IMG/VR virus record: IMGVR_UViG_3300022841_000001 | Reading direction: 5' to 3' (one strand) | Source: an uncultured virus (IMG/VR IMGVR_UViG_3300022841_000001) | Taxonomy: Duplodnaviria; Heunggongvirae; Uroviricota; Caudoviricetes; Crassvirales | DNA length: 20,000 nt | In this document: positions 3,743-20,000 of the stretch, piece by piece | How the letters are laid out: the number at the start of each line of letters is the position of its first letter | How positions within the stretch are numbered: the first letter of the stretch is position 1 | The notes under the pieces: model-generated | What the model was told of the DNA's origin: nothing | The model's input: the letters and a program-made list of their open reading frames with translations, nothing else | The model's database searches: none | Made by a program: the position numbers and the translations under genes

Positions 3743-3775
3743 AACACTCTAAATAATTTAGGGTGTTTTTTTTTT
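3743..3775 (+). terminator. Intrinsic terminator
   Basis: 11-bp stem AACACTCTAAA / TTTAGGGTGTT (one G-U pair) with a TAA loop. The 3' arm runs into a T10 tract (3766-3775). Confidence 0.85.
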
Positions 3776-12026: not shown

Positions 12027-12845
12027 ATGTCTTTAAATTGTAGTAATAGTACAGTAACGTACAGTGAAAGTGCAAAAGGATTTCCTTCTTTTTACAGCTT
12101 TATACCAGAGTATATGATTGGTATGAATAGTTTTTTCTATAGCTTTAAAGAAGGTAACCTGTGGAGACACAATACAAATCCAGTGCGTAACAATTTTTAT
12201 GGAGAGCAACATAAATCTACAATAACAAGTGTATTTAATCCTCAGCCCACACAAGCAATAAAATTATTTAAAACGTTATCGTATGAATCAACAACAACTG
12301 TAGATAATCAGGCAAATGCTGCCTGGAGTTGTACTTATTTAAAAACTGATTTAACGGATGGTAATCCTGGATCTATGTTATCAACTTATTTTCAACAAAA
12401 AGAAGGGGAGTGGTTTAGCTACATAAGAACAAATGAATCAACGATAAACTTTAAAGCTAGGTCAGCAAATGGTATAGGAAACTGTACTGCTATTAGTGGT
12501 TTATCTGATGATATATTATTAGAATTCAACGTTTCAGTTGGCTCTATTCTTAGTATTGGTGATTTAGTTTATGCTGCAAATATAGAGAACGGTTCTGTAG
12601 TTGGAATTCCTATAGCTGCTGGTATTGTAATTTCAAAAAACTCCAGCAGTATTTCTATAAATGCAACTCCTACACAGAACTATACAGTTCCTACTGTTGG
12701 TCAGTACATAATGTATATAAAAAATGCTGTTGCAGAGTCTACTGGAGCTAGAGGTTACTACTTAGAATTTAAGTTAGAAAATAATTCCTCAAATCCAGTT
12801 GAATTGTTTTCTGTGGGCAGTAGCGTCATGAAAAGTAATCCATAG
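12027..12845 (+). CDS. C-terminal part of the tail nozzle/muzzle protein encoded as a separate gene, 272 aa
   Basis: TVTYSESAKGFPSFYSFIPE...FYSFKEGNLWRHN...NNFYG, IKLFKTLSYES, FQQKEGEWFSYI and GARGYYLEFKL...VELFSV match the C-terminal region of tail stabilization proteins as I recall them. Confidence 0.62.
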   Translation: MSLNCSNSTVTYSESAKGFPSFYSFIPEYMIGMNSFFYSFKEGNLWRHNTNPVRNNFYGEQHKSTITSVFNPQPTQAIKLFKTLSYESTTTVDNQANAAWSCTYLKTDLTDGNPGSMLSTYFQQKEGEWFSYIRTNESTINFKARSANGIGNCTAISGLSDDILLEFNVSVGSILSIGDLVYAANIENGSVVGIPIAAGIVISKNSSSISINATPTQNYTVPTVGQYIMYIKNAVAESTGARGYYLEFKLENNSSNPVELFSVGSSVMKSNP

Positions 12846-12865: not shown

Positions 12866-13276
12866 ATGGAATTACATATAAGAAGATTAGTTGAATCGGA
12901 TTACGATAATATTTTGTGTAAATGGTGGAAAGATTGGAGATGGACACCACCTTCTAGAGACTTTTTACCTAACGATGGAGTAGGCGGTATTATAGTTTAC
13001 GATGGAAATACTCCTGTTTGTGCAGGGTATGTTTATATTACCAATTCAAAAGTAGGTTGGTGTGATTGGATTATATCTAACTTTGAATATAAAGACAAGA
13101 GTAATAGAAAAGAAGCTTTAAATGAGCTGATACGTGCTTTAACTGACACATTAAAAAAAGGTGGTTGTAAGTATTCTTACGCTCTTATAAAATCCAAATC
13201 TCTAATTGGAAATTATGTAAATAACGGCTATGTTGAGGGAGATAGTTACAATAAAGAAATGATAAAAATATTATAA
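12866..13276 (+). CDS. GNAT-fold (acetyltransferase-like) protein in the T7 gp13-like position, 136 aa
   Basis: GNAT-like pattern: IRRLVESDY start, beta strands GIIVYDGNTPVCAGYVY and WCDWIISN, a helix, then LIGNYVNNGY. Sits between nozzle and internal virion genes as in many podophages. Confidence 0.6.
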   Translation: MELHIRRLVESDYDNILCKWWKDWRWTPPSRDFLPNDGVGGIIVYDGNTPVCAGYVYITNSKVGWCDWIISNFEYKDKSNRKEALNELIRALTDTLKKGGCKYSYALIKSKSLIGNYVNNGYVEGDSYNKEMIKIL

Positions 13277-13277
13277 T

Positions 13278-14123
13278 ATGGCGGCAGTAACAGCATCAGT
13301 AGTAGGTATAGCAACAGGTCTTGCATCAGCAGGTATGAGTTTTAGTCAAGCAGCTAAAGCGTCTGATGCTGAATCTAAAGCATTAAAGGCTTCTGAAGAA
13401 TTAATGGAGGAGGCTAAAAAAGAAGCAGAAGTTAGATACCTAGAAGGATTAAATGTTCCTTTAGATGGATACGATGAAGAAGCTCGTGCAAACTTACAAG
13501 CTCAACAACAAGGGTTACAAGCTCTTCAAGAGGGTGACCCTAGAAATTTAGCTGCTGGTGTAGGTAGAGTTGGAGCAGCTGCAACTTTAACGAATGAAGG
13601 TATTCGTAACGACAAGAATAGAGAGCTATATGATTTAGAAAAAGCTCAAGTATTAGAACAACAAGCAATAGGGCAAGATTTAAAAGATATGGCTGTTGGT
13701 GCTGCTGCTGATCAGCAAATGATTTCTCGTGATGCTGCTGAAAATAAAGCTGCTGCTCAACAAAGTGCATTTGCAGGTATAGGTCAAGCGGCTAGTTCTG
13801 CGGCCAGCTTAGTTCCATTATACGCGAAGTCAAAAACAGATAGAGATATTAGTGATATTTTAGGAAATACAGATACTGCTAATATGAGAATAATGGGAGA
13901 TAATCCTAATAGTAATAGTAATTTATTTGAAAAATACACATTAGCAGGTAACAATTCAGAGGCGTCTAAATATGCTCCTCAGATTAGTGGCTCTGCAGCT
14001 ATGAGTAATTCTCAGATTATGCAGGAAATTACAGCAATGGGTTATACTGCGGAGGAACTACGTGCATTGAAAAAAGCTAAGAGTGGTTTTAATATTAACA
14101 CGTCAGGAAGATTCTCTAGATAA
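13278..14123 (+). CDS. Putative internal virion/ejection protein (T7 gp14-like), 281 aa
   Basis: N-terminal Gly/Ala-rich hydrophobic helix (AVTASVVGIATGLASAGMSF), Ala/Gln coiled coil and a second Gly/Ala helix. First gene after the GNAT gene. Confidence 0.6.
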   Translation: MAAVTASVVGIATGLASAGMSFSQAAKASDAESKALKASEELMEEAKKEAEVRYLEGLNVPLDGYDEEARANLQAQQQGLQALQEGDPRNLAAGVGRVGAAATLTNEGIRNDKNRELYDLEKAQVLEQQAIGQDLKDMAVGAAADQQMISRDAAENKAAAQQSAFAGIGQAASSAASLVPLYAKSKTDRDISDILGNTDTANMRIMGDNPNSNSNLFEKYTLAGNNSEASKYAPQISGSAAMSNSQIMQEITAMGYTAEELRALKKAKSGFNINTSGRFSR

Positions 14124-14129
14124 AAAATT

Positions 14130-16187
14130 ATGGCAGAAAATAAAAGTACACCACAGGCATCAAATAAATATTCTATTTACGCTCAGAGAAATGTAGAAAG
14201 CACTCAAGTTGACTGGTCTAAAATAGCCAGTACTTTAACTAAAGGAGCTGAATCAATCAGAGATGAGAGGCAAGGTCGTAAAGACGCTATAGACGTAGCT
14301 ACTCAGGATTCAATGGAGCAGCTTAGTAAGGTTGAAGATGTAAATAATCAAGATGCTGCTAGTTTACTTATTGATGGCTCAAGTATGTCTACTGAGTCTC
14401 TCAGAGTTCAATCAAATATGCTGAAACGTGGTTTAATAAAGCCAAAAGATTTTAAGCTTTTTATGCAACAACAAAAAAATGGGTATTCAAATTTAAACAC
14501 AGCTGTAAAGGGCTGGGATAAATGGGCTACACAAGCAACTGAAAGGTTGGCTATTGCAAAAGCTACAAGTTCACCTATAGCAAGTGAGTTAGAGATTGAA
14601 TTAAACAAACAGCTAGAAGGTTTAGGTAACTTAAAGAATAAAAAACTATGGACTAATCCTGTAAATGGCCAAATGCAGTTGGTTACTATGGGTAAGAATA
14701 AGGATGGCATCTATAATGTTATGCCTGATTACAATACTGAAAAAGAAAAGTTTCAGAATCCAAACACTATGAATAACTTGATGAAGTTTAAGTTAGATAG
14801 GTTTGATATGAAGTCTGCGACAAAAAGAATTACAGACCAAACTGCTACAATTATAACTGCATACGAAGGTAATTATAATGTTTTATCAGGTGGTGGAGCG
14901 ATATATTCAAAAGAAAGTTTTAGACAGTTAGGTAAATTTGGAAAAGATTCAAATGGCAAAAAGCTAACATTTAAAGACTGGAAAGAAAACGAGATTGATG
15001 CTGTTGTTGGTAGCTCTTCAGAGACTAATAATTCTAATGCCGGTCAAGTGCTTGCTGGTAGAGGTTACAAATATGCTAGAACTAAAAAACAATTTAAGTC
15101 TCAGTATCCAAATCTTGATGAAAAATTCTTTATTCCTTACGAAACAATTTCAGGAAGACCAGAAATTACATTAACTTCTGCTCAACAAAAAGAGGCTAGA
15201 AATTTTGTAAACAATCAAATTGAAGCTGGTATCGATGATAAATTAACAATATCTTCTGCTAAGGCTGGTCAACAAAAAAGACAAGACACAACAAACACCA
15301 CTGATATAAATGATGCGAAAAACAGAAGGGTTGCATATGCTGGTGATTTAAATAACCTTATGTCTGGGGACTCAGGAAAAGCTTCTGCTGTTGGTGAGGA
15401 TAGAATAGTAGACATGAACAAAAGATTCAAAGAGTCTAAAAGTCAGTCAACTAAAGAGATACAAAAAATATCAAGAAACGCTGACGAGTTTGTTATCAAA
15501 CAAAAAGAGAAAGGAAAAGATATATCTGTTAAAATACAGAGGTATGAAAAGGATGGTAAAGGTGGGTATGATTCTTCTAGACCAAGACCAGCAAAAGAAA
15601 TAGCGAGAGAGCTTTACAGGCAAATACTTCCTGCTGATGCTACTGATATGTCATTTGATCAATTTTATCAAGATGCCATAGATGATGGGTTTAGTTTTAC
15701 TCCAAGAATGATTGATAATGGTAGTGGTACTATGGTTCCTAACCCTGATTACAAAGGTGATGAAACTACTTCTACTACTGAAAACATAAGACCAATTGAA
15801 TTATATTCTTCAGGGAGTGATTATACTGATTTAAACTTCACGAAAACATTAGCTGATGAGTACGCTTTAATACCTAAAGGTAGAGATAATTTTGAAGCGG
15901 CTACTCCTGTTGTAATGAAATCAGTTGAAAGAGGTTTATCTGCAATACCTGGAGCTAGAGGTATCACAGTGACCAGTAACGATGTAAGATTTGATAGTAC
16001 TAACGAGATTATTGTAAACTTCAATAACCCAGTTACTGGGAAGCCTGATAAAAAAGTTTTTAAATTTAATGAAGACACAACTAAACTTCAAGGAGATGTT
16101 GATGTTTTTATTAATGAGCAAATACAATTGTACAACGATTCAATAGGAAGTGATATAAAAGGAAACGCATCAAGATTTAATAAATAA
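14130..16187 (+). CDS. Putative internal virion/ejection protein (gp15-like position), 685 aa
   Basis: Hydrophilic, Cys-free, helical N-terminal half. Lies between the small and the giant ejection-like genes. Confidence 0.5.
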   Translation: MAENKSTPQASNKYSIYAQRNVESTQVDWSKIASTLTKGAESIRDERQGRKDAIDVATQDSMEQLSKVEDVNNQDAASLLIDGSSMSTESLRVQSNMLKRGLIKPKDFKLFMQQQKNGYSNLNTAVKGWDKWATQATERLAIAKATSSPIASELEIELNKQLEGLGNLKNKKLWTNPVNGQMQLVTMGKNKDGIYNVMPDYNTEKEKFQNPNTMNNLMKFKLDRFDMKSATKRITDQTATIITAYEGNYNVLSGGGAIYSKESFRQLGKFGKDSNGKKLTFKDWKENEIDAVVGSSSETNNSNAGQVLAGRGYKYARTKKQFKSQYPNLDEKFFIPYETISGRPEITLTSAQQKEARNFVNNQIEAGIDDKLTISSAKAGQQKRQDTTNTTDINDAKNRRVAYAGDLNNLMSGDSGKASAVGEDRIVDMNKRFKESKSQSTKEIQKISRNADEFVIKQKEKGKDISVKIQRYEKDGKGGYDSSRPRPAKEIARELYRQILPADATDMSFDQFYQDAIDDGFSFTPRMIDNGSGTMVPNPDYKGDETTSTTENIRPIELYSSGSDYTDLNFTKTLADEYALIPKGRDNFEAATPVVMKSVERGLSAIPGARGITVTSNDVRFDSTNEIIVNFNNPVTGKPDKKVFKFNEDTTKLQGDVDVFINEQIQLYNDSIGSDIKGNASRFNK

Positions 16188-16192
16188 GAACA

Positions 16193-19100
16193 ATGAACGA
16201 AGAAGCTTTTGAATATGCTTACAGTCTTTTTACTCAAGATGGATATACAGGAACAATAGATGATTACAGGTCTTTAGTATCTAGCGATACTGATGCTGTA
16301 TCTCATTCTTATGAGTTATTTAAAAAAGATAAATACTCAGGTTCAAGAGAGGATTTTGAGCAATTGTTAAAACCTGAAAAAAAAAATCAAGTCGACACCG
16401 TGGAGGAAACTTCAGATGGGGTGGAGGAAGTTACGGAATCGTTACAAAAAAATGGATCTTCGGATTCTTTAGGTCAAGAAGATAATGTACCTAAAATAAA
16501 AGTAGAGCAAGATGTAATTACTGATAGTTCTATAAATGGTATTGATGTAGAAAAACAAGACTTTGATAAATTTGTAAGTGATGAAGAGGAGATAAAGAAA
16601 CAAACTGAAGACCCATTTTCTTATTCTATGAATATTGTAGATGAGGCTTTAATAAATGGTAGCGAGGAGAATGCTGTTCCTTTAATGAATTATCACTTTA
16701 ATCAATATGGTTTTAAATTTAAAGAGTCAGATATACTTGGTGATGGTATGGTTGTTAGTTCAGCATCACTTGATGAGAATGGAAAAAGAAAAGAACTTAG
16801 AGTAAACCTTGACCCATTTTCTGGATTTGGAGACAAGGAAGAGAAGGAAGCATTACAGAATTTTTTAAACGAGAACAAAGAAAACAGCAGGAAACTTCAG
16901 TCTGCTGAGAAAGGATACGCTAATTTAGAAAGAAAAATTACTGACCAAAAAGGAATAGACTCCTCATTAAATTCACTTAATACCAAAGCAAATGTTTTTC
17001 GGCAAGAAGTGCAAGGATGGTTAAAAGGTAACGCTGAGTTAAAAAAAAGAACAGAGTTTTTCGATGGATTATCTCAAGACGAAATAAATGACCCTAAAAT
17101 AAGAGATGCTTTTAACTTATACATATCAGATACCAATAAGTCAGAAGCATTAAAGAAAAAAATATTAGCTACTGAATCTGAATTAAGGGATTCGGGTAGA
17201 GCTTTAGACCAAACAATGGGGCGTTATTCTGAGATGAAATCTGCTTCAGGAAACATGTCATCAGCTTCTTTGAATGCTATATGGTCTGGAATTGGAAGGA
17301 TGGGTTCAAGTGCAATGAATTATGTCACTGACTTTATTGTAAACACAGGAGAGTTTGGAGGCGCAAGTCCTATAGGTTACAAGAAATTGTATATGGATAC
17401 AGCGAAGAAAATGTTTGCGACAAAGAAATCTGACGATATACACGACTTAGAAACTCCTAACGAAAACAACGAAACAAGTAAAGGTAAGTGGAATAGTTAT
17501 CTTGAAAATTTAACTGACGAGCAAAAAGACAAAGTAAGCGCTAAGACTAAAGATATTTTAGCAAAGGATAGAAAGTTTGACATCTACGACTTTAATGAAG
17601 ATGGAGGTGCTGATTTAAAAGAGATTCCATCAGGAAGTAGATACTCTGATTACGCTAGAAAACAAAATGTAAAAAATCTTAGTAAGGACTCAATGGTAGA
17701 GCTTGCTAGAACGGCTCCTGTAAAATCATTTGGTGATGACGATGCCAGTGTAGAGTACAGCGACTTAGTGAAAGAAGGTTTTTGGGGAGGAGCGTACCTT
17801 GGATTAATGGAATCGTTACCAGCTATGGCAGGCCCTTCGGGAAAAGCAGGTTTAGTAATGAGGACAGCTTCTATGTTTGGTCAAGTTTCTGACCACGTAA
17901 ACGAAGAGATGTTTAAGAATCCTGAATTTGCAGATATTTCTGAGAACGAAAAACTAACTGTTGCTATTCCTTTAGGTATAACTGTAGGTGTTCTTGAGAC
18001 TATTGGTTTTAGGAATGTAGTGCAACAAAAAGGACTTATCAATAAGGTTTTATTAAAAGCTATAGGAAAGTATACTGGAGCAAAACAAGTGTCTAAGAGA
18101 GGGTTTACGGACGTTGTTCGTCAAGAGGTTGACGGAATGTTAGCTCGTGGTGTCCTTACCTTGGCTGCTGGTGGTGTTGCTGAATTTGAAACAGGTGCTG
18201 CACAAGAGATTGCGGATATTGGTATAAAAGCTATATACAATGGTGCTAAAGAGAAGGATATGTTTCAGACTCCTGAAAGTATCAAGGATGGAATAAACCA
18301 AGTTCTTAAAGCAGGTGCGCAAGAGATGGTTGGTGGCTGGATAATGAGTACTCCTGGAGCAATGATAAACGCTGCTACTTCTAAGGATTTTACTCGTTTA
18401 GATAATGGTGTGTTCGAGGTTTTTGAGGATATGATAGATGATGGTACTTCTACCAAGTTGATAAACATAAAATTAAAAGAGCAAATAAACGCAGGTGTAA
18501 TTACTGCCAGTGAAGCAAAAGAGCAAGAAGCTATTTTTAATAAGTTAAAAGGAGTCTACACTCAGATTCCTAGTGACTATTCTACAGATCAAAAAAAGAA
18601 AGCTTTAGGTCTATTGTTGAATAGACAAGGTTTAGAGCAATCTATAGAAGGTAAAGATGATGCTACGGTTAAGCCAGTAAAAAGAAAAATTGATGAGATA
18701 AACGATTTACTTGAGGAAATAAGTAATAATGCTTACGAATCTAATGAGGCAACTACTGTAGGTCGTGTTGAGGAGGACGAGATTATTGATGAAGAAATTA
18801 AATTAGAAACACCAAACCCAGAAAAAGATGGAATACAAGAGCAAGGCACAGATGGAGTGGATGCAAAAGAACCTACCGGAAGTAGCGAGGAGATCGAACC
18901 AGGAACCACAGATGACAGAACTACCGGAAAGAGTGATACCGAAATCGAAAACGAAAGCAGGGAAAAGGCCGAGAAGGAAATAGAAGTACTAGAGTTTAAG
19001 GAGAAAGATTTACAAGTAAAGTTAAAAGAAATAGCACAGAACGGAACTTCTCCTGAGACTGAAAACGGTCAATTATTTGATAAGGTTTCAGATGAATTGA

Positions 19101-20000
19101 TTGAAGTAATTTCTGAAATTAAAAAAGCAAAAGATAATTTATTAAATCAAAAAGAAAATAAGGAGGTTGCAGAAATTGAAGAGGATATAGATGTTGTTGA
19201 AATTAAACCTACAAAAAAACTTAAGAACGATTTTAAAAACAATAAGCTTAGCTATTTTGACAGAGTCGGAATGCTTTTTGCTATTGCAATAAAAAAGAAG
19301 AACAAGAAAAAGTTAACTAGTTTTGAGGATACACTTTTCTCTAGCTCAGATTCTGCTTTAGTTAATGATATTCTTATTGAGGTAGATGAACGTGCAAGTT
19401 CTCAGTCACAAAGAAGACCATATGTAAAACCTGATTTTGATGTATTAGGAAAGAATCAAGAGGAACAAGACCAGCAAGAGGCAGAGGATTTTGATGCGTT
19501 ATTAAATCCTGATTCAAAAGTAGAGTCAGACATTGATAATCTTCCTACAGCAGAGCTTGAGTTAATGAATGGTGAGACTGTTAAAATCAATCAAGAATCC
19601 AAGAACCTCGTCTTTACAAAGAAAGGAAAGGATGCTTCTACAGGTACAGATCTTACTACTAAGATTTTAAAGCAGGCGCAACAAGCAGCCAAAGCTATTG
19701 CAAAAATATTTCCAAGTATCACAATAATGGTGCATAGGGATAGTGAAATATATGACACTCTAGACCCTGATAAAAATTCTAGAGGACTATATGACCCTGC
19801 AACAAACACTGTTCACATAAATTTAACCAATGGTAAGGCAGACTCAAAAACTGTTGCTCACGAGGTGTTTCATGCAGTGTTGCTTAACAAGTTAAAAATG
19901 AACAATAAGGCAGCAATTGCTGCTACTAAGAAAATGGTTCAAGCCTTGTCTAGGTCAAAAACTTTAGACAAGAATACTAGAATAGCTTTAAAGAATTTTG
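16193..20000 (+). CDS. Giant internal virion/ejection (polyvalent) protein with zincin metallopeptidase motif, >1269 aa, 3'-truncated
   Basis: Manually translated. ATG at 16193 (MNEEAFEYAYSLF...) stays open to the window end and is absent from the ORF track because no stop is reached. Has Gly-rich hydrophobic segments (~17777-18380) and RGLYDP...VHINL...TVAHEVFH (HExxH at 19859-19873). Confidence 0.85.
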   Translation, partial: MNEEAFEYAYSLFTQDGYTGTIDDYRSLVSSDTDAVSHSYELFKKDKYSGSREDFEQLLKPEKKNQVDTVEETSDGVEEVTESLQKNGSSDSLGQEDNVPKIKVEQDVITDSSINGIDVEKQDFDKFVSDEEEIKKQTEDPFSYSMNIVDEALINGSEENAVPLMNYHFNQYGFKFKESDILGDGMVVSSASLDENGKRKELRVNLDPFSGFGDKEEKEALQNFLNENKENSRKLQSAEKGYANLERKITDQKGIDSSLNSLNTKANVFRQEVQGWLKGNAELKKRTEFFDGLSQDEINDPKIRDAFNLYISDTNKSEALKKKILATESELRDSGRALDQTMGRYSEMKSASGNMSSASLNAIWSGIGRMGSSAMNYVTDFIVNTGEFGGASPIGYKKLYMDTAKKMFATKKSDDIHDLETPNENNETSKGKWNSYLENLTDEQKDKVSAKTKDILAKDRKFDIYDFNEDGGADLKEIPSGSRYSDYARKQNVKNLSKDSMVELARTAPVKSFGDDDASVEYSDLVKEGFWGGAYLGLMESLPAMAGPSGKAGLVMRTASMFGQVSDHVNEEMFKNPEFADISENEKLTVAIPLGITVGVLETIGFRNVVQQKGLINKVLLKAIGKYTGAKQVSKRGFTDVVRQEVDGMLARGVLTLAAGGVAEFETGAAQEIADIGIKAIYNGAKEKDMFQTPESIKDGINQVLKAGAQEMVGGWIMSTPGAMINAATSKDFTRLDNGVFEVFEDMIDDGTSTKLINIKLKEQINAGVITASEAKEQEAIFNKLKGVYTQIPSDYSTDQKKKALGLLLNRQGLEQSIEGKDDATVKPVKRKIDEINDLLEEISNNAYESNEATTVGRVEEDEIIDEEIKLETPNPEKDGIQEQGTDGVDAKEPTGSSEEIEPGTTDDRTTGKSDTEIENESREKAEKEIEVLEFKEKDLQVKLKEIAQNGTSPETENGQLFDKVSDELIEVISEIKKAKDNLLNQKENKEVAEIEEDIDVVEIKPTKKLKNDFKNNKLSYFDRVGMLFAIAIKKKNKKKLTSFEDTLFSSSDSALVNDILIEVDERASSQSQRRPYVKPDFDVLGKNQEEQDQQEAEDFDALLNPDSKVESDIDNLPTAELELMNGETVKINQESKNLVFTKKGKDASTGTDLTTKILKQAQQAAKAIAKIFPSITIMVHRDSEIYDTLDPDKNSRGLYDPATNTVHINLTNGKADSKTVAHEVFHAVLLNKLKMNNKAAIAATKKMVQALSRSKTLDKNTRIALKNF
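16377..16485 (+). other. Candidate programmed -1 frameshift/transcriptional slippage site and trans-frame ORF
   Basis: A10 run (16377-16386) and hairpin (16396-16423). The -1 frame opens right after TGA 16375-16377 and reads KKKSSRHRGGNFRWGGGSYGIVTKKWIFGFFRSRR* to TAA 16483-16485. Confidence 0.5.
18828..18983 (+). CDS. Nested +1-frame small basic protein (51 aa) inside the giant gene
   Basis: MEYKSKAQMEWMQKNLPEVARRSNQEPQMTELPERVIPKSKTKAGKRPRRK*. A-rich upstream region with A at -3. Host-frame codon usage is locally atypical. Resembles the small phage 'MPFKSKAQ..WM..N.PE.A' family. Confidence 0.6.
   Translation: MEYKSKAQMEWMQKNLPEVARRSNQEPQMTELPERVIPKSKTKAGKRPRRK

Follow-up and report, generated by a model that had tools for sequence, protein, structure and literature searches.

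Potyviral slippage takes place when the viral RNA-dependent RNA polymerase of these RNA viruses slips on a GA6 motif. With a single A added, a hidden overlapping frame becomes readable and is joined to a common N-terminal part, the product being P3N-PIPO (parts of PMC4552492 and PMC4761962). In Thermus thermophilus dnaX (tau/gamma), the long product comes from a single ORF, and transcriptional slippage on a 9-nt run (9–10 nt of A or T in the type of site considered here) gives rise to a shorter product with the same N-terminus (PMC5009743, in part). In the portions of the literature covered here, the ribosomal -1 shifts of lambda G-T, T7 10A/10B and E. coli dnaX likewise yield two products with a common N-terminal part in a set ratio, and slippage in Shigella mxiE, spa33 and mxiA and in Citrobacter tssM sets the ratios of injection-machine parts. 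Here we describe a run of ten A near the start of a giant phage virion gene. As judged by comparison of related loci, the run is almost certainly a real, functional recoding site, and besides its large product the giant gene very probably yields a second, small protein absent from annotations.

The window, by which we mean the whole 20,000-nucleotide stretch analyzed (IMG/VR IMGVR_UViG_3300022841_000001), is the virion module of a Bacteroidota podophage, and PHROG virion families were matched in it. The best-matching sequencing runs carry the label salt lake metagenome. The capsid protein is 44% identical to that of Elemovirus (Elemo), 40% to those of phi38:1/Calle (Pervagoviridae) and 24% to that of phi13:2 (Pachyviridae). 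Based on the common capsid protein and virion gene order, we place the phage in the Elemovirus, Pervagoviridae and Pachyviridae group and consider it Elemovirus/Pervagoviridae-like. The genes that frame the site are the following:

12027-12845: crassvirus muzzle C-terminal domain (PF25729), in a gene of its own behind a 498-aa Cys-rich gene
12866..13276, + strand: conserved upstream gene, acetyltransferase-like according to the name in one record
13278..16187, + strand: two genes of 281 and 685 aa, located by synteny where the smaller ejection/cargo proteins are encoded
16193..19999, + strand: giant ejection-type (polyvalent-like) virion gene, running past the window end; the full protein has 3325 aa (P0001)

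The giant gene is the last and largest of the virion module, and its counterparts phi40:1 gp101 and phi18:3 gp123 owe their annotation to virion MS/MS. P0001 has no Pfam match; polyvalent-protein domains were found in two of five homologs scanned (LPD23 in P0013, ART-PolyVal in P0018), and the giant protein contains one HExxH motif, at residue 1223. By analogy with the crAss001 cargo genes, the products of the 281- and 685-aa genes may be ejection/cargo proteins. A scan of promoters and terminators gave chance-level results only. Elsewhere in the window, a hairpin followed by T10 behind a 250-aa gene (3745-3775) is a likely intrinsic terminator.

The elements of the site itself lie 2% into the giant gene:

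16193..16378, + strand: N-terminal module of 62 codons with two repeats of about 30 aa (by eye), common to the giant and the short product
16375..16377, + strand: TGA that closes the -1 frame just 5' of the run
16377-16386, + strand: A10 slip site, at codon 62 of the giant gene
16378..16485, + strand: hidden -1 frame encoding a 35-aa basic Gly/aromatic tail, 35 codons to TAA
16396..16423, + strand: proposed stimulatory hairpin, weak, not conserved and outside the signal

The A10 run is the only A run of at least nine on the + strand of the window and, as a sequence-only reading had pointed out, it contains the in-frame heptamers A_AAA_AAA (16378) and A_AAA_AAT (16381). That reading's description of the -1 frame was also accurate: it is closed upstream by TGA, lacks a start codon and is open for 35 codons; the six Val/Ser/Thr codons ahead of GAN codons avoid the T ending; and 62 + 35 residues give a product of 97 aa, in line with the length of about 97 aa proposed. 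As the TGA directly precedes the run, the tail can be reached only via a frame change inside the run. The predicted product joins an acidic module (62 residues, charge -8) to a tail of 35 residues with a net charge of +11. Upon synonymous recoding of the window alone (200,000 trials), the A10 was unremarkable given the encoded residues (P 0.30) and the open -1 frame was rare (P 0.005); -1 segments of at least 35 codons number 4 among 866 in the window. Contigs from four sequencing runs provided one contig across the run, identical to the window. The strong evidence is conservation, rather than chance estimates from the window alone.

We collected relatives via the upstream gene (12866-13276), independently of the run. 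Among the best 80 of 231 viral loci obtained in this way (the close set), 60 extend to the start of the giant gene; the other 20 stop short of it or allowed no call. All 60 have exactly A10 and an open -1 frame, with the run at codons 41–116, in 45 distinct contexts, and all 60 keep the same Gly/aromatic motifs (YG, GxF) in the -1 peptide, whose conservation the sequence-only reading had named as a check. A distant set was centered on Elemo (best 80 of 530 loci, 66 of them informative). There, 57 of the 66 loci, including a duplicate of a close locus, bear an A9–A11 run with a tail, one has A10 without a tail and eight lack the site. Run, run length and hidden frame go together in conservation and in loss; no tail is present in the eight loci that lack the site. 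Neither of the patterns that the sequence-only reading had named as arguing against it, mixed AAG/AAA codons breaking the run or a closed -1 frame in homologs, was found. Cultured ElemoA, phi38:1, phi40:1, Calle_1 and Gundel_1 carry A10 and an open aromatic -1 frame, and MW202828 carries A11 with such a frame; in the 42.5 kb of phi38:1, the site is the sole A/T run of at least eight. The site is kept in several phage families that infect Bacteroidota, a wider spread than previously thought. The counts do not represent independent events, since the sequences are related, and a further set picked by motif (38 true sites among 42, all A10) was not counted as unbiased. A pattern scan of bacterial genomes returned 16 matches, all unrelated.

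With 9 of 66 distant loci lacking it, the tail is dispensable in some lineages. The loci without the site are L153, L154, L156, L168 and L171; L176 and L204; and L178, the last being 89% identical to L179 through the preceding gene, after which a different giant gene follows. From L142:8159 onward, A10 is kept and the -1 frame ends after 13 residues, which would provide truncation only, like dnaX gamma.

For sequence statistics, we analyzed 93 distinct sites, leaving out four loci with a run and without a tail. In the 18 codons after the run, one -1 codon in 1674 is a stop, versus 15% before the run and 12% past the tail. The tails contain 24% aromatic residues and 14% Gly, versus 12% and 3.4% in the subsequent -1 codons. 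The caveat raised previously, that -1 frames of acidic sequence are Arg/Gly-rich by default, therefore applies to Arg, which is at background (14.2% vs. 14.7%), but not to Gly and the aromatics, which exceed it. A profile built from the close set recognized 18 of 49 distant sites in the -1 frame, 8 in frame 0 and 9 in the +1 frame. On 189 overlapping close pairs, pN/pS was 0.50 (-1), 0.88 (0) and 1.16 (+1); for 16 disjoint pairs, counted more strictly, it was 0.85, 1.43 and 1.65, respectively, the -1 value not being significant (p 0.38). These values point to modest selection on the tail. The +1 frame (16379-16498 in the window) also has few stops after the run in relatives (1.4% vs. 7–9%), which tempers the stop argument for -1 coding; lacking clear sequence conservation, this frame is probably a by-product. 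Taken together, conservation supports the proposal of a recoding site with a conserved basic Gly/aromatic tail.

Bacterial RNA polymerase, with its 9–10 bp hybrid, undergoes efficient slippage at nine A/T, and E. coli ribosomes find A_AAA_AAG much shiftier than A_AAA_AAA (PMC5009743, in part); ribosomes slide little at A9/A10 and robustly at A11 (PMC4363877, in part). With thresholds of nine for the polymerase and eleven for sliding, both from other species, A10 lies above the first and below the second. As for slippage of the dnaX type, to which codon phase is immaterial, all 93 sites have a run of at least nine (A10 at 85, A9 at 7, A11 at 1), and the run occupies codon phases 0, 1 and 2 at 8, 41 and 44 sites, interleaved on a quick, weakly resolved tree. 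Searching metagenomes with a pattern allowing 7–13 A gave 57 true sites (54 A10, 2 A11, 1 A12, none shorter), with 19 unrelated matches set aside; the same pattern gave A10 in 31 of 31 viral contigs. No site shorter than A9 with a tail was found with a detection threshold of A7–A8. Other KKK stretches in the same genes are encoded by AAA AAA AAA in 1 of 56 cases.

The conservation of run length (9–11, mostly 10) in all three phases and the scarcity of A_AAA_AAG, in frame at 1 of 93 sites, favor RNA-polymerase slippage, which we consider a reasonably probable source of the short product. The sequence-only reading had been headed as a programmed ribosomal -1 shift and had mentioned polymerase slippage as well; the latter fits better, and the former is less likely. 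The RNA polymerase, probably that of the host, would transcribe the late virion operon across A10, and its 9–10 bp RNA:DNA hybrid would realign on the run, so that some of the transcripts would carry one additional A. Translated normally, slipped transcripts would yield the N-terminal module, KKK and the beta-meander tail (97 aa), unslipped ones the 3325-aa protein. Both the transcriptional nature of the slippage and the making of the product are what we infer from sequence comparison. Against this reading, the thresholds are those of E. coli and Thermus and may not be those of Bacteroidota, and A runs cause less slippage of E. coli RNA polymerase than T runs do (PMC6260861, in part).

Polymerase slippage and a ribosomal shift would give an identical peptide, so that a programmed ribosomal -1 shift on A_AAA_AAA / A_AAA_AAT has to be considered. 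Both heptamers are valid X_XXY_YYZ sequences, such a heptamer is in frame at each of the 93 sites, and overlapping heptamers could add up; moreover, ribosomal shifts are frequent in phage structural genes (PMC5009743, in part), and a Lys-rich nascent peptide could slow the ribosome. Conserved stimulators are lacking, however. The hairpin that had been put forward can be drawn, yet its folding energy of -6.7 kcal/mol (z -0.84) was reached by 43 of 200 shuffled sequences, and folding downstream of the run is unexceptional at close (mean z +0.26, z < -2 at 0 of 45) and distant sites (mean z -0.45, z < -2 at 2 of 49). We accordingly rejected a conserved 3' stem-loop as the signal, good folds being present at 2 of 94 sites in a folding model that excludes pseudoknots. 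A Shine-Dalgarno-like motif lies upstream at 16 of 93 sites. Together with the rarity of the shiftier A_AAA_AAG and the lack of A7/A8 sites with a tail, although A7 would suffice for a heptamer, these findings render the ribosomal shift somewhat unlikely.

The other mechanisms are, even jointly, quite unlikely. Sliding of ribosomes on iterated AAA lysine codons depends on run length and not on phase, as seen at the A10 site, but little product arises at A9/A10 in the E. coli system (PMC4363877, in part), and 92 of the 93 sites are A9 or A10, with at least 11 A at a single one; we regard it as very improbable. Equally improbable is phase variation of the DNA, in which replication slippage would produce A11 genomes that express the short protein only. 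It would account for A11/A12 at 3 of 57 metagenome sites and for 26 predicted proteins with the tail in frame, 23 of them with a KKK junction of one extra A. Such A11 genomes would lose the giant virion protein, though, of the 10 clusters inspected, 9 consist of a single member, on contigs of 0.6–8 kb, and viral contigs are A10 in 31 of 31 cases. Finally, there might be no second product, the conservation reflecting a main-frame linker or an RNA/DNA element. The weak pN/pS result on disjoint pairs and the stop-poor +1 frame agree with this idea; on the other hand, the main frame is less conserved than the -1 frame (8 vs. 18 of 49 distant sites recognized by the profile), rare codons make up 8 of 32 codons as opposed to 6% genome-wide, the tails vary between two and four strand-like segments (by eye) with their motifs kept, and RNA structure is absent. 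It thus seems hardly credible.

Across relatives, single-linkage clustering sorted the N-terminal modules of 119 loci (including four non-site loci) into 17 groups; by eye, most of the modules are tandem repeats. Unrelated tandem modules have been exchanged between relatives with near-identical tails. Such tails follow unrelated or distant N-terminal modules in L053 versus L061, in L071 versus L108 and in L082, with the swaps ending at the A run. The 26 proteins mentioned above (76–127 aa), nearly all consisting of module, KKK and tail in frame, were obtained by searching 1.84 billion representatives with a profile; they stem from short contigs (10 looked up), which possibly reflect DNA, RNA or errors, and are no proof of expression. 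Six-frame translations of the loci contained no second copy or stand-alone tail gene detectable by a profile that missed the Gundel and phi38:1 tails.

The tail is predicted as a three-strand beta-meander at low confidence (pLDDT 60). One of the 26 proteins, P0031, was folded as a single sequence with a pLDDT of 78 in the best of five models (48–64 in the others), its tail again forming a meander; its Atlas model is poor. Fold searches gave no usable match for P0031 (best Z 4.8, rmsd 3.0, 57 aligned; none in BFVD at E < 0.001) or for the tail (best Z 2.1), which is no evidence of a new fold. Atlas feature scores of 0.81–0.83 relate the tail to the outer-membrane beta-barrels TraO, OMP_b-brl, OmpA-like and Ail_Lom and are leads only; the strands are short, and a signal peptide is absent by eye. 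Pfam searches with 50 tails returned a chance-level match only, a PDB sequence match to an endolysin (E 0.04) was disregarded, and modeling of the tail as a homo-tetramer scored 0.01.

Based on analogy with the ejected proteins of crAss001 and T7 (PMC10172136, in part) and with lambda G/GT, we speculate, with some doubt, that the short product is packaged in the virion as a partner of the giant protein, to which the common module would hold it, and that its amphipathic cationic sheet would bind the host envelope or the ejection channel. Roles as an assembly adaptor, as a DNA-binding core peptide or as an outer-membrane disruptor at lysis are each unlikely. Similarly unlikely in its full extent is an elaboration of the packaged partner into a one-gene, two-part delivery device in a large group of Bacteroidota podophages, in which a slippage-made micro-protein would bind the giant ejected protein via the same repeat module and its cationic aromatic beta-meander would insert or oligomerize at the host outer membrane during ejection. 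In such a device, a single stretch of DNA would specify the module of both partners, which would leave it free to be swapped, as is observed among close relatives whose tails are near-identical.

Several records depart from this arrangement. The run is A9 in phi13:2, phi18:3, phi19:3, phi46:3 and Panino (L129:21268, L130:5507, L131:6250, L132:6313 and L219:18675, respectively), where a short junk ORF and a long ORF result in place of one giant gene. Four of the five are Pachyviridae, a family in which Gundel_1 shows A10 with the gene unbroken. As Panino was sequenced with MinION alone (PMC11590407, in part) and Gundel_1 has A10, the giant gene is probably split in these five reference genomes by a one-base under-call; alternatively, A9 may be true and the giant protein made through slippage. 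When Illumina-era Baltivirus relatives were sought, the same four genomes turned up and no others. In L030 (- strand, around 1501), the run is A10, the main frame ends at 113 aa and the tail frame is open for more than 500 codons, which may represent an assembly indel or a rewired gene whose giant protein needs the slip.

The class of mechanism is already known, and an earlier mention of the A10 site or its product is possible. The main text of PMC10172136, on crAss001, gave no match for frameshifting, none was found in the portions of PMC8776804 covered, and no description of the site or product turned up in a literature search whose scope left out supplements, the original Cellulophaga and Elemo papers and most subscription journals. 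Through the site, several phage families that are widespread in the sea, in salt lakes and in fresh water would gain a gene product missing from their annotations, which can be tested directly in cultured Elemo, phi38:1, phi40:1, Calle and Gundel. If true, the site would represent conserved, productive polymerase slippage in a virion gene of tailed phages, where the known cases found are ribosomal.

Compared with the described systems, the locus resembles the crAss001 cargo proteins and the T7 ejectosome in gene position and in that the last three virion genes likely encode ejected proteins (PMC10172136, in part), whereas the cargo genes g065-g069 of the crassvirus phi14:2 have no A run of at least eight. 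Lambda G-T, T7 10B and E. coli dnaX use a 7-nt site, and the G-T and 10B shifts extend the protein; here, a protein of 3325 aa would be cut to 97 aa at nine or more A without a conserved stimulator. The Shigella and Citrobacter cases concern bacterial secretion genes and have no hidden conserved mini-domain of this kind. P3N-PIPO differs in that the present site belongs to a dsDNA phage, is A10 and would give a much smaller product. In T. thermophilus dnaX, finally, both shifted frames stop at once, while in these phages the -1 frame is a conserved domain of 20–53 aa, 2% into a virion gene.
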